From: an uncultured Candidatus Binatia bacterium
Lineage (GTDB): Bacteria > Desulfobacterota > Binatia > UBA9968 > JAJDTQ01
DNA length: 64,000 nt
Direction: 5' to 3'
Assembly: GCA_965242525.1 (NCBI GenBank)
Contig: OZ251459.1
Coordinates: 3,353,515-3,417,514, forward strand
The notes below the pieces were generated by a model, which saw nothing but the letters and a program-made list of their open reading frames with translations, had not been told where the DNA came from and did not search any database. This document shows, in pieces, positions 1,115-37,650 of the stretch. Position 1 is the stretch's first letter; each line of letters opens with the position of its first letter. Position numbers and translations under genes: made by a program.

Positions 1115-1119
1115 GAGCC

Positions 1120-8584: not shown

Positions 8585-8603
8585 ATCGTGAGGAGGAACC
8601 GCC

Positions 8604-10451
8604 TTGCTCGACTCCACCACCAAACACCGTATTGACACCGCCCGTGATATCCTCGTGGGCAAGGTGCCTGACCCCAAGAGTCAGGTGGAGCAGATCACCA
8701 TCGCGCTCATCTATAAGTTCATGGACGATATGGACGCCGAAAGCGAGGAGTTGGGAGGACGGCGCAGGTTTTTTGCCAACAGGTTCGCCCGCTACGGCTG
8801 GACGAAGTTGATGCGCTCCGGCCTGGGGGGGCACGAAACCCTGAACCTCTATGCCGAAGCCATCACCCGTATGCCCGAGAACCCCGGCATTCCACCCCTG
8901 TTCCGCAGCATCTTTAACAATGCCTACCTGCCCTACCGCGACCCGGAGACCTTGCGCGCCTTCCTAAAGGTCATCAACGAGTTCACCTATGACCACTCGG
9001 AGCGGCTGGGAGACGCTTTCGAGTACCTGCTGTCCGTCATGGGTTCCCAGGGCGACGCTGGCCAGTTCCGCACCCCGCGCCACATCATCGACTTCATCGT
9101 CGCCATCATCGACCCGAAAAAGGATGAGACTATGCTCGATCCGGCGTGCGGTACCGGAGGTTTCCTCATCTCCTCTTACAAACACATCCTGAAGACCAAC
9201 ACGGACGAGGACGGGAACAGCACTCTCACGCCCGAAGACCGCCGCCGACTCGCCGTCAACTTCAAGGGCTACGATATCTCTCCCGACATGGTGCGCCTCT
9301 CCCTCGTGAATATGTACCTCCACGGCTTCGCCGACCCGCACATCTTGGAGTACGACACCCTCACCAGCCAGGAACACTGGAACGAGTACGCCGACGTCAT
9401 ACTGGCCAACCCCCCTTTCATGTCACCCAAGGGCGGCATCCGCCCACACAACCGGTTTTCGGTCCAGTCCAAGCGTAGCGAAGTCCTGTTCGTGGACTAC
9501 ATGGCCGAGCACTTGAACCCTACTGGCCGAGCCGGAATCATCGTACCCGAAGGCATCATCTTCCAGAGTCAAGGCGCACACACGAAATTGCGCCGGATGC
9601 TGGTAGAGGATTTCCTCGTAGCGGTCATTTCATTGCCAGCCGGCGTGTTCCAGCCCTATTCCGGCGTGAAGACCTCGATCCTGATCCTGGACAAGGCGCT
9701 GGCCAAACGGACAAACCGCATCGCTTTCTTCGGGGTGGAGAACGACGGCTACGATCTAGGAGCACAGCGACGACCGATCGAGGAGAACGACTTGCCACGC
9801 GTAACGGCCGAGATCGTAGAGTATCTGGGCCACTCGCGAACCGATAAATTCCTGAACGCTGCCGAACCGATACGCGCCGGGCAAGTGGCGGAGCCTAGGG
9901 GTACGTATACGACGGTCGAACCGTCCAGAGGCTTTCAACCTAATAGCGGACTCATCGTCGAGAAGGAACAAATCGCCACTCTTGGAGGCTATGGCTTGAA
10001 TGCGGTGCGTTATCAGGAAGGCGACACCCGCAAGAAGAAATCAAAGTGGCCACTTGTGAAAGTTAAGGATGTGTGCCAAGCTATTTTGGGTGGTGGCACT
10101 CCTTCTACGAAAAACGAAGAGTACTGGCAAGGGAAGATTCCTTGGATCACAAGTGCCGACATCGTAAATCTCACGACTGCGAGACCACGTCGATATATCA
10201 CGGAGAAAGCAATAAAGGAATCGGCCACCAACTTGATCCCCAAAGACAATGTGGTAGTTGTAACAAGAGTTGGCCTCGGGAAACTATTCAGGAACAGTTT
10301 TGATATATGTATTAGTCAAGACTCACATGGGTTGATCGTGAAAGATGGAGTCAATGCGGATTATCTGGTACAGATACTGAAAGACAAGGTGAAGGAATTC
10401 AAGAAAAGCAGTCAAGGTTCGACCATACAGGGAGTTACAAAAAGAGACTAG
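8604..10451 (+). CDS. hsdM: Type I R-M HsdM (N6-adenine methyltransferase) fused to a single HsdS-like target-recognition domain. Reading frame is interrupted at 10449.
   Basis: TTG start after a GAGGAGG RBS. HsdM_N region, motif I DPACGTGGFL, motif IV NPPF. The C-terminal ~200 aa (KVKDVCQAILGGGTPSTKNEEYWQGKIPWITSADI...) resembles an HsdS TRD. Confidence 0.8.
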   Translation: MLDSTTKHRIDTARDILVGKVPDPKSQVEQITIALIYKFMDDMDAESEELGGRRRFFANRFARYGWTKLMRSGLGGHETLNLYAEAITRMPENPGIPPLFRSIFNNAYLPYRDPETLRAFLKVINEFTYDHSERLGDAFEYLLSVMGSQGDAGQFRTPRHIIDFIVAIIDPKKDETMLDPACGTGGFLISSYKHILKTNTDEDGNSTLTPEDRRRLAVNFKGYDISPDMVRLSLVNMYLHGFADPHILEYDTLTSQEHWNEYADVILANPPFMSPKGGIRPHNRFSVQSKRSEVLFVDYMAEHLNPTGRAGIIVPEGIIFQSQGAHTKLRRMLVEDFLVAVISLPAGVFQPYSGVKTSILILDKALAKRTNRIAFFGVENDGYDLGAQRRPIEENDLPRVTAEIVEYLGHSRTDKFLNAAEPIRAGQVAEPRGTYTTVEPSRGFQPNSGLIVEKEQIATLGGYGLNAVRYQEGDTRKKKSKWPLVKVKDVCQAILGGGTPSTKNEEYWQGKIPWITSADIVNLTTARPRRYITEKAIKESATNLIPKDNVVVVTRVGLGKLFRNSFDICISQDSHGLIVKDGVNADYLVQILKDKVKEFKKSSQGSTIQGVTKRD

Positions 10452-10607
10452 CCGAAATTGAGATACCTCTTCCTCCGCCGATCGTACAACGAGAAATCGT
10501 AGAAGAGATAGAGAGGTGCCAAAAAGTTATAGACGAGGCATTAGAATTGGTAACGCAGATGAACAGCAAAATAGAGACAACCCTAACGCGAGTGTGGGAA
10601 TCATAGT
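10439..10607 (+). pseudogene. Frameshifted conserved C-terminal segment of HsdS (LAEIEIPLPPPIVQREIVEEIERCQKVIDEALELVTQMNSKIETTLTRVWES). An A5 tract at 10439-10443 separates the two frames.
   Basis: Frame 2 downstream of the TAG at 10449 encodes the canonical HsdS 'IPLPPLxEQ' conserved region. One extra A in the A5 run would fuse it in frame, giving ...STIQGVTKKRLAEIEIPLPP... Confidence 0.6.
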
Positions 10608-10610
10608 TTT

Positions 10611-12278
10611 ATGAGAGAGAATCAAATGTATTGGGATATTCCGCAAATTGTCGGCGAGCCGCTGCATATACCTATCACTGGCGGCGACCGGATTTTCATC
10701 GTAGGTCCCAACGGTTCGGGAAAATCAGCGTTGATTCAGCACTTTGTCTCGTTACATGGGTCTCAGAATCAGCCTCAGGAAATCCAACGTATTGCAGCGC
10801 ATAGGCAGACATGGCTTACTTCGGGAAGCATTGATGTTACACCGAAGAAACGCAGACAGTTTGATGAAATCTTTAAGACATATGAAACCGATCCTGCCTC
10901 ACGATGGATGGATAGGAGTCCGCACGAGAGACAGTCAGCGGTGCTCTTTGATTTGGTTGCGCAAGAGAATGATCGAGCCCGTCGCATTACTCGTCAAGTT
11001 GACGATGGAAAGGAGTGTGAAGCGAAACGAATCGCTGCTAGAACAACATCTCCTTTCGCTCGACTCAACGATCTATTACAATGTGGAATGTTGACAATCA
11101 CACTTGAAGATTCGCTTGGGGAAGAGATACTGGCTCGGCATCGAGGTACGGAAACCTCCTTCAGCATGGCGCAGATGTCGGATGGGGAACGAAATGCTGC
11201 TATTATTGCCGCTAATGTATTGACTGTGAAACCTGATACTATATTGTTAATCGATGAACCGGAGCGGCATTTGCACAGGTCGATTATTGAGCCTTTTCTT
11301 TCTGCCGTGTTTGAACAACGACAAGACTGTGCGTTCATCATTTCGACACATGAGCTCGCCCTGCCGATTGCCAATCCAAGAGCACAAGTTCTTATGGTTC
11401 GATCATGTAGATGGGGGGCGGATACTGCAGAAGCGTGGGATGCGCAACTTCTCAAAGCAAGTCCGGAACTACCGGAAGATCTGAAACGCTTGATCCTGGG
11501 TGCTCGAAGGAGAATTTTGTTTGTCGAGGGCACCTCAGGCAGCTTAGACCTACCACTTTATACTACTCTATTCCCGAAGGTCTCCGTGGTGTCGCAGGGG
11601 AGTTGTACTGATCTCCTAAGGGCCGTAAAAGGCTTGCGAGAGACTACAAACCTGCATCACGTCGAGGCATTTGGTCTTATTGACCGGGATAACCGCGGAG
11701 AGGATGAGGTTAAACAATTGTTTGATAATGGAGTGTTTGCTCTCGAAGTGTACTCAGTGGAAGCGCTTTACTATTCTCTGGACGCTATTGAAGCGGTGGC
11801 TCGTTGGCAAGCGAATTCATTCAGGTGCAGCGCCGATGAGATGATCGCGTCTGTGAAAGAGGAAGCATTGCGTGTCTTGGAGGAAAGCGATTTGGCAGAA
11901 AGAATGGCAGCACGACGAAGTGCCGGTCGGATACATGCTGAATTATTGTCACAAATGCCTGATTGGAAATACATCAGAGACCATAGGGGTAGCAGATTCA
12001 AAGTTTCCGTGGAGTCTCCGTACTCAGAGGAACTGGAGCATTTTCGCAAACTTGTTGCCGAAAAGAGATTGGATGAACTCGTCGCACGCTATCCGTTACG
12101 CGAGAGTCGTCTATTCAATACCATTGCCAACGCTTTGAAGTGTCGTTACAGAAGTGACTACGAGCAGATGGTGCTTTCCCGGCTTAGAGACGCCGAGAAT
12201 CTGGCTCAGAAGCTGAAACAACGCGTCGGCCCTCTCGCGACGGAGCTTGAGCGGGCTACCTCCCGGGAAGCAGGCTGA
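10611..12278 (+). CDS. ABC-type ATPase fused to a DUF4435/TOPRIM-like domain: an OLD-family or fused AriA-AriB (PARIS)-like defence protein.
   Basis: Walker A GPNGSGKS, signature-like MSDGER, Walker B/H ILLIDEPERHLH. C-terminal half has TOPRIM-type acidic motifs ILFVEGTSGSLD and FGLIDRDNRGEDE. About 44% GC against a ~69% background, and begins four nucleotides after the hsdS end. Confidence 0.65.
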   Translation: MRENQMYWDIPQIVGEPLHIPITGGDRIFIVGPNGSGKSALIQHFVSLHGSQNQPQEIQRIAAHRQTWLTSGSIDVTPKKRRQFDEIFKTYETDPASRWMDRSPHERQSAVLFDLVAQENDRARRITRQVDDGKECEAKRIAARTTSPFARLNDLLQCGMLTITLEDSLGEEILARHRGTETSFSMAQMSDGERNAAIIAANVLTVKPDTILLIDEPERHLHRSIIEPFLSAVFEQRQDCAFIISTHELALPIANPRAQVLMVRSCRWGADTAEAWDAQLLKASPELPEDLKRLILGARRRILFVEGTSGSLDLPLYTTLFPKVSVVSQGSCTDLLRAVKGLRETTNLHHVEAFGLIDRDNRGEDEVKQLFDNGVFALEVYSVEALYYSLDAIEAVARWQANSFRCSADEMIASVKEEALRVLEESDLAERMAARRSAGRIHAELLSQMPDWKYIRDHRGSRFKVSVESPYSEELEHFRKLVAEKRLDELVARYPLRESRLFNTIANALKCRYRSDYEQMVLSRLRDAENLAQKLKQRVGPLATELERATSREAG

Positions 12279-12368
12279 ATCAATGGGCTCTTCCGGCTTT
12301 CGTGTGGGTAGGGATAGGGAGGAAAGGGGGGGTGAGACAGGGTAGAGGGAGCGGCAAGGGAGGGAGCA

Positions 12369-12650
12369 ATGCGCTACGTCGCGCTCATCCACGGTGGTGA
12401 CGGTTCCGGTTTCGGCATCAGCTTCCCCGACTTTCCCGGATATGCGTCGGATGGCGACACCGTGGAGGAAGCCTTCCACCGCGGCGCCGAGGCGCTGGCC
12501 TTTCACATCGAGGGCATGATCGAGGACGGAGAAACCATCCCGGAACCGCTCGGCGTCCAGGAGGTCAGGGCCGATCCGAGCCTTGCGGAATGGCGGGAGG
12601 GCGCGGACGTGGCCTTCGTTCCTCTCGTCCTCGACAAGGGTTCCCCGTGA
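12369..12650 (+). CDS. HicB-family (UPF0150) antitoxin-like protein; an orphan copy.
   Basis: MRYVALIHGGDGSGFGISFPDFPGYASDGDTVEEAFHRGAEALAFHIE is the HicB N-terminal RNase-H-like fold signature. Confidence 0.6.
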   Translation: MRYVALIHGGDGSGFGISFPDFPGYASDGDTVEEAFHRGAEALAFHIEGMIEDGETIPEPLGVQEVRADPSLAEWREGADVAFVPLVLDKGSP

Positions 12651-13263: not shown

Positions 13264-14652
13264 TCACCTGAGCACGCTCATCACCGCACGTGCGTCCACC
13301 ACGTGGACGCCGGCGCGGGTGCGCGGAGCAGCGCCTCCCGGGACGAACAGCGCATGGCAGACTTCGGCGTTCCCGACATGGGGCAGGTTTCGGAGGGCGG
13401 CAAGGGCGCCGGCTCCGGACGGGGCGGCCGGCTTCACGGACCACTTGACTTCGCCCACCAGCAGCCGCCGGCCGTCCACCGAGAACGCGACGACGTCCAG
13501 TTCCGGCTCATGGCCCCGCCAGTACCTTTGCGCGGGCTCCCACGGGCCGAGTTCCGCCAGCCTGGTATCGGAGCGGTGCAGCAGGGGTACGGCCATGCGG
13601 CACAACTCTTCCCAGGCCAGGGACTCCAGGCCGGGGCAGTGCCGGTTCCAGTAGCGCAACCGCGTCTCCCGAGGCGCCGCGGCAAGGGCGGCCCGGTGGG
13701 GGGCGACCACCCGGAACCACAGCCGGAGAAAGGGGTCGTCGATCCGGTAGAGGCTTCGCTTGCCCGACTTCGGGTCGCTCCCGAAGGGCGTCTCGCGGCG
13801 CACGAACCCCATCTCCATCAGGGACGCCAGGGGCTTCGACAAGCCGGATGCGGGTTTGCCCAGACGGCTTGCGACCTCGCTGACCCGATGCGCGCCGTTG
13901 CCGATGACGTCCAGCACCGGGCGTAACGCAGTAGCCGGGGGCGTTTCCTCCCGCAGCAACCGGTCGGGCTCTCCATGCAGCGGTCCTGCAGGGTCGAGGA
14001 CCAGGGCGTCCACCGCAGCGTCGCAATCGTCTCCGAAGGGTTCGGCCAGCTCCCAATAGCGGGGCATCCCGCCCCACAGCGCATACGCGGAGACCAGGGC
14101 GCGGAGGTCGTCGAAGGGAAAGACCCGGGCAAGGTGTCCCGGTTGCAGCGGGCGCACGGCAAAGGCTTCCGCGGCCCGGCCGTACAGGGGCGCGGCGGCG
14201 TCGAGGATGGCGCTGCGCATCATGTGCTGGCTCGACCCGCAGACCACCAGCTTCAGCCGACGCTCCGGGCGGTCCAGCCAGTTCTGCAGGACGCCGGCCA
14301 GAGCAGGGTCCGCGTCGAGGAGGTAGGGCAGTTCGTCGAGTACGAACGGCCCCTGCCAGCCGGCCCGCTGGGCCTCCGCGTCGAGCCGCGTCAGGAACGA
14401 GCGCCAGTCCGGGTATTCGACGTCGGCAAAGCCGGGGAACCGTTCGGCGACCGCTCCGGCCAGGTAGCGCCGCTGCACCGGAGGCGCGGACTGGTCGGCC
14501 ACCGCGTAGAGGCCGTCGTGACGCCGGGTCCACTCGATGAGCAGGCGTGACTTGCCGACCCTGCGGCGCCCCCGGACGACGGCGAAGGCCCCGGGCCGCA
14601 AGAGCACGCGGTCCAGTCGGCGCATCTCTTCCGCGCGGTCGAGGAACTGCAT
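13264..14652 (-). CDS. Archaeal-type AAA+ ATPase with a DUF234 C-terminal domain (an 'ATP-binding protein' common in defence islands).
   Basis: MQFLDRAEEMRRLDRVLL...VVRGRRRVGKSRLL (Walker A); DUF234-like C-terminus. The true ATG is at 14652; the track's 14745 start is a high-GC extension. Confidence 0.6.
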   Translation of the reverse strand: MQFLDRAEEMRRLDRVLLRPGAFAVVRGRRRVGKSRLLIEWTRRHDGLYAVADQSAPPVQRRYLAGAVAERFPGFADVEYPDWRSFLTRLDAEAQRAGWQGPFVLDELPYLLDADPALAGVLQNWLDRPERRLKLVVCGSSQHMMRSAILDAAAPLYGRAAEAFAVRPLQPGHLARVFPFDDLRALVSAYALWGGMPRYWELAEPFGDDCDAAVDALVLDPAGPLHGEPDRLLREETPPATALRPVLDVIGNGAHRVSEVASRLGKPASGLSKPLASLMEMGFVRRETPFGSDPKSGKRSLYRIDDPFLRLWFRVVAPHRAALAAAPRETRLRYWNRHCPGLESLAWEELCRMAVPLLHRSDTRLAELGPWEPAQRYWRGHEPELDVVAFSVDGRRLLVGEVKWSVKPAAPSGAGALAALRNLPHVGNAEVCHALFVPGGAAPRTRAGVHVVDARAVMSVLR

Positions 14653-14791
14653 GGAACTATTATGTGGGTCGGTATTATGCCTGTCAACATAACCTCTGGA
14701 TACGCGCCGGCGGCAGCGAACTCCGCTCGACTTGGGGATTGACACGCCGCCGCCTCATCGCCTACCTTTGTCGCCGAACGCCAATCGTCCC

Positions 14792-14842
14792 CGTTCGTCC
14801 TGAGCGTAGCGAAGCGAAGTCGAAGGACGCGCTTCCCCGCGG
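14792..14842. repeat. RepA dispersed repeat, about 45 bp (CCCCGTTCGTCCTGAGCGTAGCGAAGCGAAGTCGAAGGACGCGC).
   Basis: Near-identical copies at 18641-18680, 18863-18901 (inverted), 19170-19212, 44726-44815 (two copies), 46142-46190 (inverted) and 55381-55430 (inverted). Confidence 0.85.
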
Positions 14843-14901
14843 GGAGAGGGAGTTCGAGCCGGAATCGACCAGACGTCCCCAAACCCACGAGAGGCGCCGT
14901 T

Positions 14902-16164
14902 GTGACCACACCCGACACTCCCCTGGAACCGGAAAAGCAGTCCGCTCCGCCGGACCCGGAGAAGCAGCCTGCGATGGTGCGCGTGGACTCCTACGCGGAG
15001 TGGCGCAACCGGGAGGGGGTCCCGCTGGTGGGCGGGATCTACATCGAGGACATGAAGGCGGTGGAGGTGGGGCCGTGGCCGCGCAAGGGCGACGGGGTCA
15101 AGGGCGCGCTGTGCTACCTGGACGGCGACAACGGCGGCGACGAGCACATCGTCGAGCTGGCGCCCGGGGGCTACACCGCGCCGTTGCGGCACATGTACAC
15201 CGAGGCCATCTACGTGGTGTCGGGCCACGGCTCGTGCTCGGTGTGGCGCGAGGGCGGGGAGAAACAGACCTTCGAGTGGGGGCCGGGAAGCTATTTCGTT
15301 CCGCCCACCAACGCCTGGCACCAGTTCTTCAACGCCAGCCTGTCGCAGCCCGCGCGCTGGTTCTCCGTCACCGACCTGCCCCAGCTCCTGCGCCAGTGGG
15401 CCAGCGAGGACTTCATCTTCCACAACCCCTACGACTTCGACGACCGCTACCGGGGCGAGCCCGACTACTTCAGCGCCGAGGCCAAGCTCTACCGCGGCCG
15501 GGTGTGGGAGACCAACTTCATCCCGGACATCCGCAAGCTGCCCCTCTACGAGTGGAAGAGCCGAGGGGGCGGCGGAACCAACGCGTTCATGGTGATGGGC
15601 GCCGGGATGATGGAGTCGCACGTGTCCCGCTTCGAGTCGGGCTACTACAAGAAGTCCCACCGCCACGGCCCCGGAGCGCACCTCTACATCATCGAAGGCG
15701 AAGGCTACGTGCTCGCCCAGCGGGGCGACGAGCCGCGCATCCGCTGCGACTGGAAGGAGGGGAGCCTCTACCTCTCCGGCGCGGGCCAGGGCCTGTGGCT
15801 GCACCAGCACTTCAACGTGGGCGCGACCCCGGCCACCTACCTGGTGATGAACCAGGGCCTGTCGCGCAAGTACGCGGTGAACCGCTGGCAGGCCCAGGAA
15901 TCCACGGTGCTCCGCACCGGCGAGGTGAGCGGCAAGAAGGGCGGCTACCAGGTGGAGTACGAAGACGAGGACCCGGAGGTCCACCGGATCTTCGAGGAAG
16001 AGCTGCGGCGGCGCGGGCTTGCCTGCAAGATGAAGAACATGGTGCCTTGGTGCACGGGCGAGTCCGGGGCGGAGGCGGTCAAGGTCTTCTTCCCGGACGA
16101 GCACGGGAACCTGCCGGGCGAGCATGGCGTCCTCCCGGACGAGGAGGGGAGCTTCGTCGATTGA
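14902..16164 (+). CDS. Bicupin (two cupin domains), gentisate/quercetin-dioxygenase-like.
   Basis: Two cupin motif sets: RHMYTE...PGSYFVPPTNAWHQFFN and HRHGPGAHLYIIEGEGY...GLWLHQHFN. Confidence 0.55.
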   Translation: MTTPDTPLEPEKQSAPPDPEKQPAMVRVDSYAEWRNREGVPLVGGIYIEDMKAVEVGPWPRKGDGVKGALCYLDGDNGGDEHIVELAPGGYTAPLRHMYTEAIYVVSGHGSCSVWREGGEKQTFEWGPGSYFVPPTNAWHQFFNASLSQPARWFSVTDLPQLLRQWASEDFIFHNPYDFDDRYRGEPDYFSAEAKLYRGRVWETNFIPDIRKLPLYEWKSRGGGGTNAFMVMGAGMMESHVSRFESGYYKKSHRHGPGAHLYIIEGEGYVLAQRGDEPRIRCDWKEGSLYLSGAGQGLWLHQHFNVGATPATYLVMNQGLSRKYAVNRWQAQESTVLRTGEVSGKKGGYQVEYEDEDPEVHRIFEEELRRRGLACKMKNMVPWCTGESGAEAVKVFFPDEHGNLPGEHGVLPDEEGSFVD

Positions 16165-16174
16165 CGGGCCGGCC

Positions 16175-17689
16175 ATGCACGACATCGCGGACGAACACGA
16201 CCACGACGGACCTTCCCCCGATGACGAGGAAGGACACCCCCTGTGGAAGCTCGACACCATCACCCTCACCAGCGTCGGCATCGACGTGGGCACGGCGACC
16301 TCCCAGATCCTGTTCTCGCGTCTGGTGCTGCGGCGGATGGGACGGGAGTTGTCCAGCCGCTTCGTGGTCACGGACCGGGAGACCCTCTACCTCTCCCCCA
16401 TACGCTTCACCCCCTACACCCCGGACCGTGAACGCATCGACGACGCGGCCCTGGGCCGTCTCGTGGACGCCGCCTACGGGGAGGCCGGCCTCACCCCGGA
16501 CCACGTGGACACCGGAGCCATCATCCTCACGGGCGAAGCCATCCGCCGGGACAACGCCCGGGCCATTGCCGACCTCTTCGCCGAGCAGCGGGGAGACTTC
16601 GTCTGCGCCACCGCGGGCCACAACTTCGAAGCGTTGCTGGCCGCCCACGGGTCCGGCGCAGTGGCCTGTTCCGCGGAACGGGGATGCCGCGTCCTCAACA
16701 TCGACATCGGCGGCGGCACCACCAAGCTGGCCCTGGCCGAGGCCGGGCGGGTGCTCGGCGCCGCGGCCTTCCACGTGGGCGGGCGGCTGCTCGCCACCGA
16801 CGGCGACGGGACCATCACCGTGCTGGAGCCGGGGGGCAGGACCCTCGCCCGGCGCGCGGGGCTGGACTGGAACGTGGGCGACCGGGCCGACCCCGACGAC
16901 GTCCGGCGGCTGGCCGGCCACATGGCGGACGCGGTCCTGGCCCTCGCCCGGGACGGCGGCGACGCCACGCCCGACCTGGAGCCGCTCTGGCTGACCCCGC
17001 CCCTGGATGGCGGCGGCCAATGCGACGCGGTGGTCTTCTCCGGCGGGGTGGGCGAGTACGTCTATGGCCGGGAGCGCGAGTCCTACGGCGACCTGGGGGC
17101 GCCGCTGGGCAAGGCGTTGCGGCAACGCATGGACCACGGCGCGTTGCCGGGAAGCCTGGTGGCCGCCCGCGAATGCATCCGGGCCACGGTCATGGGCGCG
17201 GCCCAGCACACCGTGCAGGTGTCCGGCAACACCATCCACCGCTCGGACGACTCGCTGTTGCCGCGCAAGAACCTCCAGGTCCTGCGTCCGCAGGTGGACC
17301 TGGAAGGCGACATCGACCCCGAAGCCATGGGCCGGACCGTCCGGGACCACTTCCGCGCCTTCGACCTGGTGGAGGGCGAGGCCGAGGCGGCGCTGGTCTT
17401 CGCGTGGCAGGGACCGCCCGCAGCCGCCCGCCTCGCAGCGTTCTGCCGCGGCCTGCTGGCGGGCCTGCCGGCCACCGTGGAGCGGAGACGCCCCCTCTAC
17501 CTGGTGTTCGACCACGACATGGCCGGCCTCGTGGGCACGGTGCTGAAGCAGGATTTCGGCATCGAGGCCCCCGTCCTGGCCCTGGACGGGGTCACCCTCC
17601 GGGACTTCGACTTCATCGACCTGGGCAGGGTGCTGGAGCCTTCGGGCGCCGTCCCCGTCACCATCAAGTCGCTGGTGTTCCGGTTCTAG
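16175..17689 (+). CDS. EutA-like ASKHA-fold ATPase (ethanolamine ammonia-lyase reactivase family).
   Basis: LTSVGIDVGTATSQILFSRLVL parallels the EutA N-terminal phosphate-1 motif (SVGIDIGTTTTQVIFSRLEL); a second nucleotide-binding block is NIDIGGGTTKLAL. ATG at 16175 is 11 nt after the bicupin stop. Confidence 0.6.
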   Translation: MHDIADEHDHDGPSPDDEEGHPLWKLDTITLTSVGIDVGTATSQILFSRLVLRRMGRELSSRFVVTDRETLYLSPIRFTPYTPDRERIDDAALGRLVDAAYGEAGLTPDHVDTGAIILTGEAIRRDNARAIADLFAEQRGDFVCATAGHNFEALLAAHGSGAVACSAERGCRVLNIDIGGGTTKLALAEAGRVLGAAAFHVGGRLLATDGDGTITVLEPGGRTLARRAGLDWNVGDRADPDDVRRLAGHMADAVLALARDGGDATPDLEPLWLTPPLDGGGQCDAVVFSGGVGEYVYGRERESYGDLGAPLGKALRQRMDHGALPGSLVAARECIRATVMGAAQHTVQVSGNTIHRSDDSLLPRKNLQVLRPQVDLEGDIDPEAMGRTVRDHFRAFDLVEGEAEAALVFAWQGPPAAARLAAFCRGLLAGLPATVERRRPLYLVFDHDMAGLVGTVLKQDFGIEAPVLALDGVTLRDFDFIDLGRVLEPSGAVPVTIKSLVFRF

Positions 17690-17810
17690 GCCCATATCCC
17701 TTCTCGAAGAGAATCTTGCATCTCCGATCCCCTCTTCGAAGGAGGTTCCGTATCTCAGCGCCAACGGACAGACGGCTGAACGTGGCGGGCCGAGAGCGGG
17801 AGTGAAGACG

Positions 17811-18572
17811 ATGGGAATCCTTGTGGAAAAGACCGGCCGTGCGGCCTCCCTGGTCATCGACCGGCCGCCCCTGAACGTGCTCGACTTGGCCTTGCTGCGG
17901 GAACTGCGGCAGGCCCTCGACGAGGTGGAGCGGGACGACGGGGTGGACCTCGTGACCATGAGGGGCGCGGGCGAACGCGCGTTCTCGGCCGGCGTGGACG
18001 TGAAGGACCACACCCGCGCCCAGGTCCCCGAGATGCTCGACCTGGTGCACGGCGTCGTACGGAAGCTCTTGAGCCTCCCTCAGCCCACGGTTGCGGTGGT
18101 GGACGGCCTCTGCCTGGGCGGAGGCTGCGAGCTGGCTTCGTCCTGCGACCTGGTCCTTGCCAGCGAAGAGAGCGTGTTCGCCACGCCCGAGATCACGGTG
18201 GGCTGCTTCCCGCCGGTGGCGCTGGCCCGGTTCTCCTCGCAGGTGGGGTATCACCGGGCCGCGGAGATGATACTCACGGGCCGCCGCCTGTCGGCCCATG
18301 AAGCCGCGTCCATGGGGCTGGTGAACCGCGTGGCGCCGCGAGACCGGCTGCCCCGGGCGCTGGCGGAGCTCCAAGACGACCTCCTGGACAAGAGCCAAGC
18401 GGTGCTGCGCATCACCCTCAAGGGCCTGCGGGAGACCGGCCTCGAGGGTCTCTCCGCGGCCTTGGCGCGTTCCGAACGGATCTACCTGGAAGAGTTGCTG
18501 GAGACCGAAGACGTGGAGGAAGGCGTCCGCGCCTTCGTGGAGAAGCGCAAGCCCAAGTGGCGGCACCGTTGA
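17811..18572 (+). CDS. Enoyl-CoA hydratase/isomerase (crotonase) family protein.
   Basis: Crotonase fold motifs AFSAGVDVK and VAVVDGLCLGGGCELA. ATG at 17811 is preceded by a GGGAG RBS; the GTG at 17802 is a less likely start. Confidence 0.75.
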   Translation: MGILVEKTGRAASLVIDRPPLNVLDLALLRELRQALDEVERDDGVDLVTMRGAGERAFSAGVDVKDHTRAQVPEMLDLVHGVVRKLLSLPQPTVAVVDGLCLGGGCELASSCDLVLASEESVFATPEITVGCFPPVALARFSSQVGYHRAAEMILTGRRLSAHEAASMGLVNRVAPRDRLPRALAELQDDLLDKSQAVLRITLKGLRETGLEGLSAALARSERIYLEELLETEDVEEGVRAFVEKRKPKWRHR

Positions 18573-18599
18573 GGAACCCCCGGACATGGAGGGCTGATT

Positions 18600-19230
18600 C
18601 CCCGACCCTCCCGTCCCCGGTTCGTCCTCGTCCCCGTTCGTCCCGAGCGTAGCGAAGCAAAGGAACCTCTGAAAAATGGCTCTTCCGGCTTTCGTGTGGG
18701 TAAGGTAGAAGGGAAAGGGAAGCGACATCTCCGCGGACACTCACCCCGTCATTCCCGCAAACGCCCCACCCTCCGTCATTCCCGCGAAAGCGGGAATCCA
18801 TCCACTTTCCTCGCTCTCGTTGTACAAACGGAACCCCTGAACAATCGGATAGAGGCAAGGCCCGTCCTTCGACTCCGCTACGCTACGCTCAGGACGAACG
18901 GAAATAGGGGCGTCAGGGTGAGGGAATCCATCCTGTATGTCTCGATTGTTCAGAGGCCCCAAACCCTCATACAGGGCGCCCACGGAGTTTGCTCGCAAGG
19001 TCTGGATTCCCGCTTTCGCGGGAATGACGTGAAGGGGCTTTCGCGGGAATGACGAGGCAGGGCTTTCACGGGGAGGATGAAATGGGGAGTGTCGCAACCC
19101 ACACGAATTCCGGAAGCGCCTGAAAAATCGAGACATGGAGCATGGGTTCCTTCACCCTGACCCCTATCTCCGTTCGTCCTGAGCGTAGCGAAGCGAAGTC
19201 GAAGGACGCGCTCATGCTCCCCCTGTCCCG
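18600..19230. repeat. A 630-bp intergenic mosaic of REP/MITE-like repeats: RepA x3, the palindromic RepB hairpin GGATTCCCGCTTTCGCGGGAATGAC with 23-bp tandem derivatives, and RepC GGCTCTTCCGGCTTTCGTGTGGGTA with its inverse CCCACACGAATTCCGGAAGCGCC.
   Basis: The same motifs recur at 12284-12310, 23940-23975, 35556-35582, 38460-38700 and 39305-39490. Track ORFs 18696..19052 and 18741..19136 are just translations of these repeats. Confidence 0.85.
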
Positions 19231-19242
19231 ATTGCGCGACGG

Positions 19243-20226
19243 TCAGGCGGGTTGGCTGGCCAGCGTCCGGCGCACCGCGGCAACGATGTCGTCCTTGCCC
19301 GGCACGAACCGGCCCTCCAGGGGCGGGGAGCAGGGGACCGGCGCGTTGGGCGCGGCGACCCGGAGGATCGGAGCGTCCAGGTAGTAGAGGGCTTGCTCCT
19401 GGACCCGGGCGGCGACCTCGGCGCCGACGCCGCCCTGCTCCACCGCCTCGTGGGCCACGATGAGCCTCGACGTCTTCCTCACCGAGTCCACCAGGGTCTC
19501 CACGTCCAGCGGCGCCAGACTGCGGAGGTCGATGACCTCCACGGAGACGCCTTCCCCGGCCAGCGCTTCGGCCGCTTCCAGGGCCGGCGCGACCATGTGG
19601 GAGAGCGCGGCCACGGTGGCATCGGCGCCGGACCGGAGCACCGCGGCCTTGCCCAAAGGCAGGCTGCCGCGGTCCTCCGGGACCGGCCCGCGGGAGAAGT
19701 AGAGGCCCCGGTGCTCGATGAACAGCACCGGGTTGTCGTCGCGGACCGCGGCCTTCAGCAGCCCTTCGGCGTCCGCGGGACTCGACGGCATGACCGCCTT
19801 CAGGCCGGGCACGTGCAGGAACCACGACTCCAGGCTCTGGGAATGGTGCGCGCCCATGTTGCCCTTGACCCCGCACTGGACCCGCACGGTCAGGGGCACT
19901 TTCAGTTGTCCGCCCGACATGTAGTGCAGCTTGGCCGCGTGGTTCACGAGCTGGTCCATGGCCAGCGTGATGAAGTCCACGAACATGACCTCCACCACCG
20001 GACGCAGCCCGGACAGGGCCGCGCCGACGGCGATGCCCATGACCGCGCCTTCGCTGATGGGAGTGTTCACCACGCGGTGGCCGCCCAGTTCCTCGGCGAT
20101 GCCCCGGGTGACCCCGAACGGTCCTCCCAGGGCCACGTCCTCGCCAAAGACGTACACCGATGCGTCCCGCCTCATCTCCGCCAGCAACCCCGCGCGGACC
20201 GCTTCCAGGTAGCTCATTTCCGGCAT
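19243..20226 (-). CDS. Alpha-keto acid (pyruvate/acetoin) dehydrogenase E1 component, beta subunit.
   Basis: Transketolase-like pyrimidine-binding and C-terminal domains (MSYLEAVRAGL..., FGEDVALGGPFGVT). ATG at 20226 has a GAGGT RBS. Confidence 0.8.
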   Translation of the reverse strand: MPEMSYLEAVRAGLLAEMRRDASVYVFGEDVALGGPFGVTRGIAEELGGHRVVNTPISEGAVMGIAVGAALSGLRPVVEVMFVDFITLAMDQLVNHAAKLHYMSGGQLKVPLTVRVQCGVKGNMGAHHSQSLESWFLHVPGLKAVMPSSPADAEGLLKAAVRDDNPVLFIEHRGLYFSRGPVPEDRGSLPLGKAAVLRSGADATVAALSHMVAPALEAAEALAGEGVSVEVIDLRSLAPLDVETLVDSVRKTSRLIVAHEAVEQGGVGAEVAARVQEQALYYLDAPILRVAAPNAPVPCSPPLEGRFVPGKDDIVAAVRRTLASQPA

Positions 20227-20233
20227 ACGGACC

Positions 20234-21226
20234 TCAAGCATAGACTTGGGTTGCGGCCTCCCGGGGCTTGGGCCAGGGAGACGAAAGGGCGAACCGCGCG
20301 GCTTCCTCCACCAGCGCCCGGGCGTCGCTCTCCGCCTCCTCCAGGTCCTTCGGGGAAGCGGCTTTCCTCCGCTTCAGGACGCGGGTGAAGCGGGCGATGG
20401 GGTCCTTCTTCTTCCAGTCGGCCAGCCGAGACAGCTCCCGGTACTTGCCGGGGTCGCCCTCGTAGTGCCCCCGGAGACGGTAGGTCAGGCATTCGACGAA
20501 CGCGGGACCCTTGCCCCCGCGGGCGCCGCGCACCGCCCGGTCCAGGGCGCCGCGCACCGCCAGGACATCGTTGCCGTCCACGGTGGCCGCGGAGATGTCG
20601 TAGGTCTCCGCATGCCGGGCGAGCCGCTCCACCCGCGTGTGGGCGGACAGCGGCGTGAACTCGGCGTAGCCGTTGTTCTCGCACACGAAGACCACCGGAA
20701 GCCGCCACAGGCTGGCGATGTTCAGGGACTCGTGGAAGGGGCCGGCCTGGCCGGCGCCGTCGCCGAAGAACACCACCGCCACCCGCCCGGCGCCCTTCTC
20801 CCGGGCCGCGAAGGCCGCGCCCAGGGCCAGCGGCGCCGTGCCCGCCACCACGCCGCTGGCGGTGACGAACCCGGACTCCGCGGCCGCCACGTGCATGGAC
20901 CCGCCCTTGCCGCGGCAATAGCCGGTGGCCCTCCCGGCGAGTTCGGCCATGAGCCGGTTCACGTCCGCGCCCTTGGCGATGGCGTGCCCGTGGGACCGGT
21001 GGCCGCCGAAGACCGTGTCCTCCCGGTCGAGCACGCTGCACGCCCCCACCGCCACCGCCTCCTGCCCGATGCCGAGATGGAGCAGGCCCACGATCTCCCG
21101 GGCCGCGTAGAGCGCGGACACCTTCTCCTCGAAGGCGCGGATCACCCACATGCGCCGGAGCAGCGACACCAGGTCCCGGTCACCGTCCCGGCGCGCCGCG
21201 GAACGCCCTTGCCCGGTTGCCTTCAT
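20234..21226 (-). CDS. TPP-dependent dehydrogenase E1 component, alpha subunit.
   Basis: TPP-binding motif GDGAGQAGPFHESLNIA...NNGYA, and the typical AcoA/PdhA fold. Confidence 0.8.
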   Translation of the reverse strand: MKATGQGRSAARRDGDRDLVSLLRRMWVIRAFEEKVSALYAAREIVGLLHLGIGQEAVAVGACSVLDREDTVFGGHRSHGHAIAKGADVNRLMAELAGRATGYCRGKGGSMHVAAAESGFVTASGVVAGTAPLALGAAFAAREKGAGRVAVVFFGDGAGQAGPFHESLNIASLWRLPVVFVCENNGYAEFTPLSAHTRVERLARHAETYDISAATVDGNDVLAVRGALDRAVRGARGGKGPAFVECLTYRLRGHYEGDPGKYRELSRLADWKKKDPIARFTRVLKRRKAASPKDLEEAESDARALVEEAARFALSSPWPKPREAATQVYA

Positions 21227-21227
21227 G

Positions 21228-22766
21228 CTACTCCTTCCGTTGGCTCCGCGGGTCGTCCAGCGGCGTCCTGGGTCCGTCCAGGGCCAGCCGCCGGAAACGC
21301 GCCCGGTCCACCTTGAAGTCGTGGGCGTCGGTCTCCGGCCATTGGTAGAACGCGTCCGGGATCTTGTAGCGCGGCAGGGTCCGCCCGAGCCAGGCGGCCA
21401 GCGCCGCGGCGCCGGGACGCTCCCCCCGTGTCTGCACGAACGCCACGCACCGCTGGCCGAACTCCTCGTCGGGGATGGGCGCCACCACCGCCCGGTCCAC
21501 CCCGTCGTGGTCGGTCAGGGCGCGCTCGATCTCCTCGGGGTGGATGGTCTCGCCGCCGGAGAAGAAGCGGTTGTCGCGCCGGCCGATGACCGTCAGGTAG
21601 CCGTCCTCGTCCACGCGCCCGAGATCCCCGGTGGCGAACCAGCCGTCCGGGGTCAGGGGACGCATCAGGCTCCCGCCCTCCACGTAGCCCATGAACAGGG
21701 TCTCTCCGGCCAACTGGATCTCCCCCTCGCCGCCGATCCGGAGGCGGCGGTACGGCAGCAGCTTCCCGGAAGTGAGCCGCTGGGCGGTGGTGGAACCGGG
21801 TCCCGCGGTAGCCACCTGGGAGGCCATCTCGGTGCAGCCGTAGCTGGCGAACACCGGCAGACCGCGAGCGCCCGCCCGTTGCAGCAGTTTCCGCGGGACC
21901 GGGCTGCCCCCCAGGACGATGCAGCGGAGCGAAGGGTAGCGCACGGACTCGGGCCGCTGCAACAACCTGTGGAGCTGGGTGGCCACCACCGACAGGTGCG
22001 TGACCTCGTAACGGTTCAGGACCGCGTCCAAGGTCTCTCCCCGGTCCGGCATCACCACCGCGGCCCCCGCCAGCAGGCAGCGGAAGAGGATACCGAGCCC
22101 GCCCACGTGGTAGAGCGGCAGGTCCAGCAGCCAGCGGTCCCCGGCCGCCAGCGGCAGGTTCCGGTTGGATCCCAGGGCGTTGTAGTAGTGGTTGCCGTAG
22201 GAGTGGAGCACCGCCTTGGGCGCGCCGGTGCTGCCGGAGGTAAAGACGATGGTCGCGGCGCGGCCGAGGGGCATGGCGGAACCCTGGGTATCCTCGACCA
22301 AGGGATCCCTGTCCGCGGCGAATTTGCGGCCGGCATGGGATTCGGCAAGATCCATGTGCGTATCGGCGACCGGCGAGGCTCCGGCCGCGGCAAGGTCCCG
22401 GCCCCGGATCAGGGTCGCGCGGTCTCCGAGCCCCTGCTCGTCCGGGACCTGGGCCACCAGCTTCCGGCAGTCGATGCGCCGCAGCAGGTCGGCCACCGGG
22501 CGGTTGGGCAGGCGGGTGTTCATGGGACAGCACACCGCGCCCAGCCGGAGCAGCGCCAACAGCCAGACGAGGTAGTCCGGGCTGTTGGGCGCCAGTACGG
22601 CCACGCGCTCGCCGGGGGCGCAACCGGCCCGTCGCAGGGCAGCGGCCGCGGCGGCGACGCGGCCGCGGAGTTCGGCGAAGGAGAGGACGCGGTCGCCGCG
22701 CACCACCGCGGGGCGGTCGCCGGAATGCTCGGCCGCTTCTTCGAGGGGGCAGCGGACCTCAGTCAT
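21228..22766 (-). CDS. menE: o-Succinylbenzoate--CoA ligase (adenylate-forming enzyme).
   Basis: AMP-binding motif TSGSTGAPKAV and GEL(x)xGxxxxxGY. Located directly downstream of menC. Confidence 0.75.
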   Translation of the reverse strand: MTEVRCPLEEAAEHSGDRPAVVRGDRVLSFAELRGRVAAAAAALRRAGCAPGERVAVLAPNSPDYLVWLLALLRLGAVCCPMNTRLPNRPVADLLRRIDCRKLVAQVPDEQGLGDRATLIRGRDLAAAGASPVADTHMDLAESHAGRKFAADRDPLVEDTQGSAMPLGRAATIVFTSGSTGAPKAVLHSYGNHYYNALGSNRNLPLAAGDRWLLDLPLYHVGGLGILFRCLLAGAAVVMPDRGETLDAVLNRYEVTHLSVVATQLHRLLQRPESVRYPSLRCIVLGGSPVPRKLLQRAGARGLPVFASYGCTEMASQVATAGPGSTTAQRLTSGKLLPYRRLRIGGEGEIQLAGETLFMGYVEGGSLMRPLTPDGWFATGDLGRVDEDGYLTVIGRRDNRFFSGGETIHPEEIERALTDHDGVDRAVVAPIPDEEFGQRCVAFVQTRGERPGAAALAAWLGRTLPRYKIPDAFYQWPETDAHDFKVDRARFRRLALDGPRTPLDDPRSQRKE

Positions 22767-23850
22767 GCCGCGCCTCGCGCAACAGCGCGCAGTCGATGCG
22801 GTGGTCCCGGGCCAGGTCGTCGTTCCAGGACAGGGCGTCCGGTCGGAACCGGATGCGCGGCCGGACCACGTCGGCGTCGAGCCAGCGGTAGGTGTCGAGG
22901 CCCGCGGGGACTGCCGCGCCGGTGGAGTCCCAGGCGAACCCTGCCACCGCCAGCGTCCCGACGCCGCTCTCGAAACAGCCGCTCGCCACCGGGCGCACGC
23001 CCAGGGCCAGCGCCTTGGCGGCCCATTCCCGGGCCCTTGCCGCGCCGCCCAGGAGCGTGGGCTTCAACACCACCGCGCCCACCTCCTGGCGTCCTTCCAG
23101 GTCGTCGGGTCCGAGCTCCAACAGGCTCTCGTCCAGCCCCACCGGGATGCCGGTGGCGTCGAAGAACTCTCCCAGGCGCGCCGGGTCGCGCAGGGGCTCC
23201 TCCAGGTACTCGACGCCCGCGTCGCCCGCCGCCTTGCCGAAGGCCACCGCCTGCTCCAGGCTCCAGCTCCGGTTGGCGTCCAGCCGGAGGCTCACGCCTT
23301 GCCCCACCGCGGCCCGCACCGCCCGCGTCAACTCCGCGTCTTCCGCCGCCCCTCGACTCCCCACCTTGAGCTTGACCGCGCGGCAACCCGCGTCCCCGAG
23401 TCGCGCGGCCTGCCGCAGCACTTCCTCCCGGGACCCCATCAGCAGACCGTTGACCGGGACTGCGCCGTCGAAGCCCGGCAACTCCCCGTCAGTCCCCGTG
23501 CGCATGCGCCGCGACAGGCTCGCCAGCGCGGTCTCCAGGCCGAAACGCACCGACGGCGAGGCCGCCTCGGGCGGCTCGCGGCCCAGCCACGATTCGAGGT
23601 CGCCGCCGCCGGGCTCGAACCCCGCGCCTCCCAGACGCCGGGCAAGGGCGGTGAACTCGGCCGCGGCGTCGTCCACGCTCTCGCGGCTGAACCCGGGCAG
23701 CGGCGCCGCGTCGCCCCAACCCCACGCCCCGGAATCCGCCTGCACCCGCACCAGCAGGCCCGTGCGCTCGCGCACCGCCCCGCCCGCCAGCGGCAGCGGC
23801 CGCGCCAGCGGCAGGCGGTAGCGAAAGATCCGGCAGCCCTCGATCCTCAT
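22759..23850 (-). CDS. menC: o-Succinylbenzoate synthase (enolase superfamily).
   Basis: Enolase-superfamily barrel with KLKVG...LRLDAN.SW...EEP; lies in the men gene context. Confidence 0.75.
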   Translation of the reverse strand: MRIEGCRIFRYRLPLARPLPLAGGAVRERTGLLVRVQADSGAWGWGDAAPLPGFSRESVDDAAAEFTALARRLGGAGFEPGGGDLESWLGREPPEAASPSVRFGLETALASLSRRMRTGTDGELPGFDGAVPVNGLLMGSREEVLRQAARLGDAGCRAVKLKVGSRGAAEDAELTRAVRAAVGQGVSLRLDANRSWSLEQAVAFGKAAGDAGVEYLEEPLRDPARLGEFFDATGIPVGLDESLLELGPDDLEGRQEVGAVVLKPTLLGGAARAREWAAKALALGVRPVASGCFESGVGTLAVAGFAWDSTGAAVPAGLDTYRWLDADVVRPRIRFRPDALSWNDDLARDHRIDCALLREARHD

Positions 23851-24042
23851 GATGCTAAGGTTAGCCAGGCTAGGAGCCTGTCCGAGTAAGGAATCCTGGA
23901 TTCCAGGTCAAGCCTAGAATGACCGGACGGAACTTCTCCCGTCATTCCCGCGAAAGCGGGAATCCAGAGGAAGCGAGCCCCACTTCCCCGTGGCGGGTCG
24001 CTTCCCTTTCATCGTGTTCCATTTTATTTCTCCTTCCCCCTT

Positions 24043-24069
24043 TTCATTGGCTACTTCGCCAAGTATAAT
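24043..24069 (+). promoter_or_regulatory. Candidate sigma70-type promoter (TTCATT-N15-TATAAT) for the low-GC cassette.
   Basis: Perfect TATAAT at 24064-24069, 77 nt upstream of the XRE gene ATG; the -35 is weak. Confidence 0.3.
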
Positions 24070-24145
24070 CTGTCTCAAGGGTAAAGCATGCCCTAACCGA
24101 TGTCAATACCCGACAGTTTATTTTTGTCGAACTCGACATTAAAGG

Positions 24146-24496
24146 ATGCTTGCTCTGTCTGAAATCTTTCAACAACGTTTAAGGGCTGCTAGGGGTACAC
24201 GCGAATGGAGCCAAAGCGATTTGGCTAAACGCGCGGGTTTGCCGCCTAGCTCGATTGCCCATTTTGAAACCGGACCGCGCAAGCCGTCTTTCGAAACCCT
24301 GCGTCGCTTGGCTAATGCCCTAGAAGTTACGACCGATTATCTTCTAGGGAGAGTCGAAGATCCAGGTCTTGCCGAATCAGGAGATCCGCTCTTCCGTGAT
24401 ATTGGCAACCTGACCGGCAGTGATCGCGACCTAGCGAGAGACTTCCTCAAAATGTTGACGGAACGCAGTTCGGCTAAGCAAGGGAGGATCAAATGA
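24146..24496 (+). CDS. XRE-family helix-turn-helix transcriptional regulator.
   Basis: HTH_XRE signature WSQSDLAKRAGLPPSSIAHFETG; AAAGGA RBS; about 50% GC. Confidence 0.8.
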   Translation: MLALSEIFQQRLRAARGTREWSQSDLAKRAGLPPSSIAHFETGPRKPSFETLRRLANALEVTTDYLLGRVEDPGLAESGDPLFRDIGNLTGSDRDLARDFLKMLTERSSAKQGRIK

Positions 24497-24708
24497 ATGT
24501 GCCCTTGGTTTAGAGTTAGCCAAAAGGATGGGGGGAGCTATCCAGGGTTTTGAAATTCAACCTTGCCCGTCACCTCTCTTGAAATGGCAGGACTCCACGA
24601 TATCGTCTGGAGCCGAAACTCGGCATCGCCACAGGGGTGTCAGGAATGCTGTCTGTACTGGGAAGTCATTTGCTGAGCAGATCGTTACCGCTATAACGGA
24701 GTCATCAA

Positions 24709-29519: not shown

Positions 29520-29596
29520 AATCGATCCTCTTCCGATTCTCCTCGTGCACGGTCCGCATGTCCACTCCTATCGAAGGGGCTCATACCAAGAGATCC

Positions 29597-37472: not shown

Positions 37473-37650
37473 GAAATCCGTCTCCGATCGTGGGGTTTGT
37501 TGCTCGGAGGGTCTGGGGATACCCGAAAAGCCGCTCCGTTATAGGAAGAATCAAGGCAAAGTGCAAGCAAGGCTCCGGGGCTTGGCTCCCCGCTTCGTTC
37601 CGGCGTCCCCGGAGCGCATGCGTCCCGCCGCAGGGGGTGGAACGGGCGGT

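Follow-up and report, generated by a model that had tools for sequence, protein, structure and literature searches.

A co-evolving EutA-branch ATPase and bicupin, often encoded near nickel uptake genes, suggest an ATP-driven enzyme-maturation pair of a new kind

In a stretch of 64,000 nucleotides from the genome of an uncultured Candidatus Binatia bacterium (contig OZ251459.1 of assembly GCA_965242525.1; hereafter the window, meaning the whole stretch analysed), two adjacent genes encode a protein with two cupin domains (bicupin) and an ATPase of the EutA family, and a crotonase gene follows them. The G+C content of the window is about 70%, and coding open reading frames (ORFs) were picked by their G+C content by codon position (GC3 for the third position). 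The bicupin gene (14902..16164, + strand; GC3 0.95) encodes a protein of 420 aa that is put forward as client or enzyme in the pair; the gene of the EutA-family ASKHA ATPase (16175..17689, +) encodes 504 aa, assigned below to a non-canonical, cupin-linked clade; the crotonase/enoyl-CoA hydratase gene (17802..18572, +) encodes 256 aa and is considered here as a neighbour only. GC3 values of 0.89–0.95 in the three genes, the pattern of real coding sequence, together with the Pfam matches, confirmed the three co-directional genes and the coordinates given in a preliminary description made from the sequence alone. That description had assigned 505 aa to the ATPase and 11 nt to the gap before it; the correct values are 504 aa and 10 nt (16165..16174, +, from the bicupin stop to the ATG of the EutA-like gene, as read from the sequence), and the near-abutment stands. 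So short a spacer suggests co-transcription of the two genes, and 112 nt separate the stop of the EutA-like gene from the crotonase start. A promoter and terminator scan around the genes was uninformative, with no terminator-like site in 14500-19400.

The 504-aa protein matches the Pfam family EutA (PF06277) with 386 bits against a gathering threshold of 27, from position 2 to position 474 of a profile of 475. This full-length match bears out its earlier assignment to the EutA family rather than to the hydantoinase or acetate-kinase type, and the N-terminal motif noted at that time is indeed present (SVGIDVGTATSQILFSRLVL in the window protein, SVGIDIGTTTTQVIFSRLEL in E. coli EutA, to which the whole protein is 34% identical). 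The AlphaFold2 (AF2) model, with a mean predicted local distance difference test score (pLDDT) of 87.4, shows a two-lobed ASKHA fold, for which Foldseek returned Ppx/GppA, the HgdC activator, MreB, PilM and EutJ at E values of 1e-10 to 1e-7. The phosphate-1 motif SVGIDVGT (aa 33-40; 16271..16294, +) contains G35, D37 and G39, invariant or nearly so in the family, D177, G179, G180 and T182 of the phosphate-2 motif DIGGGTTK (aa 177-184; 16703..16726, +) are invariant, and so are G290 and G291 of the adenosine motif across the family. No match to a P-loop family was found in this protein by Pfam or Foldseek. Going by the modelled fold and the nucleotide motifs, it is a member of the ASKHA superfamily. 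The homology search with the EutA-like protein returned 7,664 homologues, those at 70-84% identity being abundant in metagenome-assembled genomes of Binatia and 'Deltaproteobacteria', and no solved structure of any EutA homologue was found. PF06277 as a whole comprises about 840 clusters (E < 1e-30).

Canonical EutA drives the removal of damaged cobalamin from ethanolamine ammonia-lyase (EAL) at the expense of ATP. The window protein could be a genuine EutA that serves EAL or another B12 enzyme encoded elsewhere, placed next to a bicupin by coincidence, as would be expected from the full-length PF06277 match and from its database name, 'ethanolamine ammonia-lyase reactivating factor EutA'; moreover, the search for eutBC covered the window and related loci rather than the rest of this genome. 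In the window, the absence of eutBC and of other B12-enzyme genes was confirmed: tblastn with E. coli EutB and EutC against the 64 kb gave only matches with E > 0.6, and Pfam revealed no B12-binding or EAL domain among the GC3-supported ORFs. A tRNA was the only Rfam match in the window, and no cobalamin or NiCo riboswitch was found in the window or in 7 related loci. The scan for relatives used one genome per GTDB species, with the family alignment as query, and yielded 80 loci at 49-85% identity; with the earlier loci and the window this gave 85 related loci from at least 10 phyla, including Binatia, Dehalococcoidia, Verrucomicrobiia, Acidobacteria, Actinomycetota, Paenibacillus and many Alpha-, Beta- and Gammaproteobacteria. 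EutB or EutC was encoded within 10 kb in none of these 85 loci, and adjacent in all six canonical controls, the eutB/eutC-linked EutAs of E. coli, Listeria, C. difficile, Cetobacterium and the haloarchaea Natronorubrum and Haladaptatus.

The NCBIfam EutA equivalog models agree with this picture. The window protein scored 315, 255, 221 and 201 bits with NF007991-NF007994, against cut-offs of 598, 769, 952 and 799, and thus failed all four; eight other proteins of the cupin-linked clade reached 271-340 bits with the best model (cut-off 598), compared with 1069 for E. coli EutA. In a neighbour-joining tree, the six canonical EutAs were separated from 54 cupin-cluster relatives of the window protein in every one of 100 bootstraps, and the window protein is 29-34% identical to the former and 39-85% identical to members of its own clade. 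The preliminary placement in the EutA family therefore stands for the family as a whole, but not for its eutBC-linked part. Since eutBC are not nearby, the equivalog scores lie below their cut-offs and the split is complete, the protein is not an EAL reactivase; the co-diversification with bicupins and the clade-specific N-terminal tails described below also speak against a genuine EutA, an alternative that we consider close to refuted. The window ATPase is a member of the Pfam family, not a functional equivalog of EutA, and by sequence it belongs to a deep, large and unstudied non-canonical branch of that family.

Across the related loci, 43 of 101 EutA-like genes directly abut a bicupin gene on the same strand, and 46 of the 57 loci of at least 15 kb carry a homologue of the window bicupin. 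On contigs with homologues, the order bicupin, EutA-like gene is preserved while the flanks differ completely, and the pair is also found on plasmids of Phyllobacterium and Sinorhizobium at 35-41% identity. For 38 adjacent pairs, the distance matrices of the two proteins correlated with r = 0.90, and the four deep clades of EutA-like proteins corresponded one-to-one to four bicupin clades (adjusted Rand index 1.0), the clade of the window pair being found in Binatia, Dehalococcoidia and Verrucomicrobiia. Four genomes (L020, L041, L049 and L065) have two pairs each, drawn from different clades. This match of clades, the two-pair genomes included, goes beyond what species phylogeny alone would yield; the pairs are therefore cognate, and 14902-16164 and 16175-17689, as judged from sequence comparison, form a cognate two-gene module. 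The proposal of a non-canonical partner for the EutA-family protein is in this way substantiated, as the bicupin abuts it, recurs with it across phyla and co-diversifies with it clade for clade. No paper on a pairing of EutA-family proteins with bicupins was found in the literature. The pair is present in cultured isolates, namely Phyllobacterium zundukense, Sinorhizobium spp., Caulobacter sp. S45, Paenibacillus thalictri, Aromatoleum toluclasticum, Noviherbaspirillum humi and Limnohabitans sp. 15K, which makes the ideas put forward here directly testable. Complete chromosomes with the pair are available for Binatia (OY729432.1 and OY762897.2) and Dehalococcoidia (OZ252022.1).

When loci were selected by the bicupin instead, the ATPase was found in only 3 of the 28 loci with sufficient flank among 79 metagenome loci, and the bicupins of two loci (L007 and L095, 61-67% identity) have no ATPase alongside; an obligate pairing was rejected on these grounds. 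As the ATPase is nearly always accompanied by a cupin, while cupins often occur without the ATPase, the distribution is the one expected of a client with an accessory factor, in which the ATPase would be accessory to the bicupin. EAL enzymes that function without EutA have been reported (PMC9426561), a parallel to the stand-alone bicupins.

A separate clade of stand-alone bicupins of about 374 aa, 39-47% identical to the window bicupin, was observed in contigs of soil and sediment metagenomes (L097-L171). These usually lack an EutA-like neighbour, and their contexts are too heterogeneous to hint at a substrate. A C-terminal Cys-x8-Cys tail is common to the representative of median length and to the window clade (Cys375 and Cys384 in the window protein).

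The linkage to the crotonase is of another kind. The preliminary description had proposed an EutA-family reactivase with the bicupin and the crotonase as its partner set, possibly acting in a CoA-thioester or aromatic pathway, and the three genes are indeed co-directional in the window and in three related loci (L001, L012 and L013), the crotonase keeping both catalytic Glu positions, as read from its sequence. By its ECH_1 match (173 bits) the protein belongs to the crotonase superfamily, and no specific subfamily was reached, the best NCBIfam match being EchA19 with 176 bits against a cut-off of 400. However, the crotonase adjoins the pair only in those three loci, which are the closest Binatia (81-84% identity) and have the entire regional synteny in common with the window, including the convergent E1-alpha/beta genes, menE and menC. 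No crotonase is adjacent in other loci of the same clade (L002/L003, L004-6 and L014-16) or in the other three clades; L002/L003 encode a 32%-identical enoyl-CoA hydratase about 9 kb from the pair. Moreover, the spacing to the crotonase varies from less than 20 to about 320 nt. Because its adjacency is confined to close, fully syntenic relatives, the crotonase was rejected as a member of the module and is a neighbour of it, as are the downstream E1 and men genes; given its absence in other lineages, the link could amount at most to a lineage-specific add-on. Of the neighbourhood predicted earlier, the bicupin linkage is recurrent and the crotonase linkage is not, and the CoA-thioester idea loses its support together with the crotonase; we give it very little credence.

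The bicupin shows the features of a metal-binding protein. Pfam matches to Cupin_2, Cupin_7 and Cupin_1 fall on aa 56-157, Cupin_2 giving 57.6 bits on the N-terminal half, and the two domains extend over about aa 45-160 and about aa 200-315. The AF2 model contains two beta-barrels, and from these and from the ligands of motifs 1 and 2 the protein can be placed, on model and sequence, in the bicupin superfamily. Its predicted metal site (15658..15816, +) lies in the C-terminal barrel and consists of His253-x-His255-x4-His260 (motif 1) and His301-Gln-His303-Phe-Asn305 (motif 2). In an alignment of 63 members at 24-92% identity, H253 and H301 were conserved in all 63, H255 and H303 in 62, and N305 in 51, while H260 was variable. 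His253, His255 and His301 occupy the canonical ligand positions of the cupin barrel, and the C-terminal His residues are therefore predicted to be metal ligands on the basis of the canonical motifs. The site of the N-terminal barrel is only partial (H/Q97, E101 and H140). Homologues at 62-90% identity number in the thousands and are abundant in metagenome-assembled genomes of Binatia and 'Deltaproteobacteria'.

Foldseek aligned the AF2 model of the bicupin with OxdC, MncA and gentisate dioxygenase at E values of about 1e-16, with a template modelling (TM) score of only about 0.41 and 12-17% identity. Sequence matches in the PDB were marginal, and no NCBIfam model was reached (gentisate 1,2-dioxygenase 24 bits against 442, 5-aminosalicylate 1,2-dioxygenase 29 against 650). 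Database names of the bicupins are inconsistent and include 'quercetin dioxygenase-like', 'oxalate decarboxylase/phosphoglucose isomerase-like' and 'hypothetical', as well as, occasionally, 'ethanolamine ammonia lyase-activating protein', among the annotations of L010, L174 and P0208 (NCBI PYJ14859.1).

The bicupin might not be the client at all but a small adaptor subunit, as DdrB is for DdrA, of a reactivase directed at a third enzyme. Diol and glycerol dehydratase reactivases are two-subunit complexes, and co-diversification would fit any obligate complex equally well. Against this, there is no conserved third partner, the commonest neighbours after the bicupin being transporters and a regulator, each in less than half of the loci; the bicupins are also found alone; and the conservation of the canonical cupin His ligands argues that the bicupin is itself a metalloenzyme. 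For these reasons we regard a third client as improbable.

The second line of evidence for metal handling comes from the ATPase. Its first 32 residues form a tail rich in His, Asp and Glu (MHDIADEHDHDGPSPDDEEGHPLWKLDTITLT; 16175..16270, +), which precedes the first ASKHA motif and is a candidate metal-binding arm; it starts with MHDIADEHDHDG (MHDIADEHDHD...), and many relatives carry ...DHDHDHD... stretches. Residues 1-14 are disordered in the AF2 model. Of 120 close homologues, 99% carry a tail with at least 3 His, and so do 83% of 92 EutA-like ORFs from the genome loci and 54% of 129 distant representatives. It is missing from all of the 95 enterobacterial EutAs, and the N-termini of the six eutBC-linked EutAs, 6-9 aa long, contain no His.

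The third line is found in the surroundings of related pairs. On a plasmid of Phyllobacterium zundukense, the second pair (L174) is arranged in the order bicupin, EutA-like gene, HoxN/NixA nickel/cobalt transporter, NikR, the last two being supported by 432 bits against a cut-off of 333 and by 204 bits against 83, respectively. NikR scored above its cut-off in three loci in total, the others being L021 (Rhodospirillales) and L082 (Limnohabitans), and HoxN-type homologues occur in 17 further loci (18 in total), in Caulobacter sp. S45 (L041) directly upstream of a pair. If such transporter genes occur about once in a few thousand genes, then by a rough estimate well under one would be expected in these loci by chance. 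A scan for NikR boxes gave one good palindrome in the hoxN-nikR spacer of L174 and a weaker site upstream of nikR in L021, and no site before any bicupin gene. The metal signal, made up of the tail, the His site and the nickel genes of related loci, and the co-diversification of the pair had both escaped the preliminary description, to which they were invisible.

In five related loci (L023, L031, L047, L038 and L084), an AAA+ ATPase resembling proteasome ATPases and CDC48 (gene family 26) was also observed; it ends in a His-rich C-terminal tail (HDHDHGHGHEHHH), and in L023, L031 and L047 its gene immediately adjoins that of the bicupin. The same enzyme family may have in this protein a second metal-handling ATPase, unrelated to the first.

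These observations lead us to suggest that the ATPase uses ATP to mature or reactivate a bicupin enzyme that depends on a metal, possibly nickel, a proposal to which we give an even chance. The physical contact between the two proteins, the action of the ATPase as a chaperone or reactivase and the choice of metal are all inferred. The bicupin would be a metal-dependent enzyme with its active site at the 3-4-His site of the C-terminal barrel. By analogy with EutA, the ATPase would bind its cognate bicupin, use ATP to open the metal site, and then load or exchange the metal, or remove one that is oxidised or wrong, with the disordered His/Asp-rich N-terminal tail serving as a metal-carrying arm. 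Nickel would be the leading candidate metal. In a more specific form, to which we lend noticeably less confidence, the whole non-canonical EutA clade would represent a new class of ATP-driven nickel insertases or reactivases of the ASKHA type, and the bicupins would be an unrecognised nickel-dependent enzyme family widespread among soil and freshwater bacteria.

Several findings weigh against this proposal. The window contains no nickel or other metal transporter, so that the metal evidence inside it comprises only the conserved His site of the bicupin and the tail of the ATPase; the clade to which the window pair belongs offers no hint beyond an Opp/Nik-type ABC transporter in L004, which is ambiguous at 312.6 bits against 350. 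Most of the NiCoT-like neighbours elsewhere are distant relatives, with 42-70 bits against 333, and one paired clade, E2, which includes the NikR-adjacent protein of L174, has no His tail. About 19% of the long loci lack a bicupin inside 10 kb, and none of eight unusually long EutA-family representatives carries a cupin or any other extra Pfam domain that would indicate a fusion. The confidence of the bicupin model is only moderate (pLDDT 72.7), and its Foldseek matches were generic bicupins, with no structural neighbour pointing to a function. Finally, ASKHA proteins are often kinases, and a catalytic role is possible for the window ATPase.

Such a role would be realised if the two proteins formed a two-component ATP-dependent enzyme, in which the EutA-like subunit phosphorylates or adenylates a small substrate and the bicupin performs a coupled metal-dependent step; the hydantoinase-A-type subunits of acetone carboxylase and oxoprolinase offer a model for the first reaction. 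The ASKHA fold and its intact nucleotide motifs are compatible with this, as are the tight adjacency of the genes, with a gap of 10 nt in the window, and the constant position of the pair amid catabolic and transport genes (ABC and tripartite tricarboxylate transporters, IclR, oxygenases, decarboxylases). In the large clusters of Proteobacteria and Acidobacteria, the pair is accompanied by an IclR regulator and by transport genes for a fused ABC permease, an ATPase and a binding protein of the PhnS/Fbp type, as well as by a PhtD/NMT1-like protein of the cytosol and one or two small monocupins. The enzymes encoded there are a thiamine pyrophosphate (TPP) enzyme, a HIBADH-like dehydrogenase, a class II aldolase, a Rieske oxygenase together with an FNR-type reductase, and sometimes UbiD/UbiX. 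No neighbour family in these clusters reached a curated NCBIfam cut-off and therefore no pathway could be named; by gene content the clusters look like systems for the catabolism of an aromatic or other organic acid. The aromatic pathway considered in the preliminary description thus receives an indirect hint from other clades and none from the genes adjoining the pair in the window.

The evidence as a whole makes a two-component enzyme rather unlikely in our view. Related bicupins without the ATPase, in 25 of 28 testable loci, would be unexpected if it were an obligate catalytic subunit; a His/Asp tail is typical of metal handling and not of substrate phosphorylation; and genes for nickel uptake and its regulation are found in linkage with the pair. 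In addition, the only characterised function of PF06277 is that of a reactivase directed at a protein (PMC9426561).

Large conserved clusters were noted in Burkholderiales and their relatives (L018, L035, L037, L046, L059, L062, L079 and similar loci). Besides one or two bicupins and two EutA-like paralogues that belong to different clades, they encode two small monocupins, a NiCoT-like and an ABC transporter, IclR, a Rieske oxygenase together with its reductase, a class II aldolase, a PhtD-like protein and a TPP enzyme, and none of the members reached a curated family cut-off.

The proposal of a maturation or reactivation factor has consequences for annotation and beyond. In public databases the ATPases of the clade are uniformly called 'EutA' although they fail the equivalog cut-offs, and these labels imply an ethanolamine or B12 metabolism that is not in evidence. 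With a sister clade devoted to metallo-cupins, the reactivase principle would no longer be confined to a B12 enzyme but would also cover protein-bound metal centres; if nickel were confirmed, the clade would represent a type of chaperone unrelated to the known GTPase-based systems of nickel maturation. Comparative genomics has revealed organisms with nickel transporters but no known nickel enzyme (PMC2667541). The HoxN and NikR genes abutting the pairs provide a concrete candidate for such cases, and the nickel insertase reading, if true, would explain some of them.

The remainder of the window offers several observations in their own right. Just upstream of the bicupin pair, a low-GC island (6053-12650; 47-60% G+C) encodes a type I restriction enzyme of 843 aa, a fused type I methylase/specificity protein of 615 aa, a PARIS-like AriAB protein in which ATPase and Toprim are fused (555 aa, 179 bits), and a HicB antitoxin. 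The Binatia relative L001 has PIN, PhdYeFM and DUF2441 genes at the same position, for which reason the region is regarded as a hotspot for defence and toxin-antitoxin genes. Divergent from the bicupin gene, 13264-14745 (-) encodes an ATPase_2/DUF234 protein with a winged helix-turn-helix domain, which scored 85 bits with PDC-S27, a PADLOC candidate family, and L001 encodes AAA_14/DUF4143 proteins at the equivalent flanking positions. Further along, the E1-beta and E1-alpha genes of a TPP-dependent 2-oxoacid dehydrogenase (19243-21226, -) are located immediately downstream of menE/menC, and no E2 or E3 gene is close by, an arrangement kept in L001, L012 and partly in L013. A second low-GC island (23900-29550; about 50-54% against about 70%) interrupts the menaquinone operon; it separates menC (22759-23850) from menA (29597-30493), which are adjacent in L001. 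It encodes a 289-aa protein with a weak SspD-like match, a DEAD/ResIII helicase (PbeA-like), a 627-aa HATPase_c_3 protein (MzaB-like) and a PLD-like nuclease (DrmC-like). This set matched none of the known defence systems in full, and the region may be an uncharacterised defence island. Genes for molybdoenzymes of the xanthine dehydrogenase family, with two large subunits and CO-dehydrogenase-type FAD and 2Fe-2S subunits, are located at 772-3405, 36130-37566, 36990-37472 and 51064-53361, and a hydantoinase-A gene at 47902-49971 represents an ASKHA family separate from the EutA-like protein.

Among the known systems, EutA of E. coli and Salmonella is the closest to the window ATPase, which has in common with it the full-length family match, the ASKHA nucleotide motifs and the N-terminal SVGIDxGT...FSRL motif, and from which the proposed mode of action, an ATP-driven release or exchange of a tightly bound cofactor, is borrowed. 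By contrast, the window-type ATPases form a separate deep clade below all equivalog cut-offs, are encoded next to a bicupin and never next to eutBC, and bear a His/Asp-rich N-terminal extension of 25-60 aa that canonical EutAs lack; the proposed client would moreover hold a protein-bound metal and not cobalamin. The diol and glycerol dehydratase reactivases DdrAB and GdrAB are likewise chaperones with an ASKHA/Hsp70-like ATPase that exchange a damaged cofactor.

With the nickel delivery systems (UreG, HypB and CooC, with UreE, the HypB tails and CooJ) the proposed pair would have in common the use of a nucleoside triphosphate, His-rich tails and clustering with nickel transporters and NikR. 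UreG, HypB and CooC are SIMIBI P-loop NTPases, however, and since the window ATPase has an ASKHA fold instead, it would be unrelated to them both mechanistically and evolutionarily, the resemblance being functional only. As to the client, gentisate 1,2-dioxygenase, OxdC, MncA, the nickel quercetinase QueD and acireductone dioxygenase resemble the window bicupin in architecture and in the cupin motifs with their His ligands, and cupins that use nickel exist as a precedent. The window bicupin differs from these metallo-cupins in its low sequence and structural similarity, with NCBIfam scores far under every cut-off, and in its conserved site, which is in the C-terminal barrel and includes an extra conserved His (HQHF). 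To our knowledge, none of these enzymes needs a dedicated ATPase. A parallel for a dedicated accessory protein is offered by the XylT ferredoxin, which is encoded in a catabolic operon and rescues the oxidised metal centre of catechol 2,3-dioxygenase; XylT, however, is no ATPase but a small [2Fe-2S] reductant, and it serves a vicinal-oxygen-chelate enzyme instead of a cupin.

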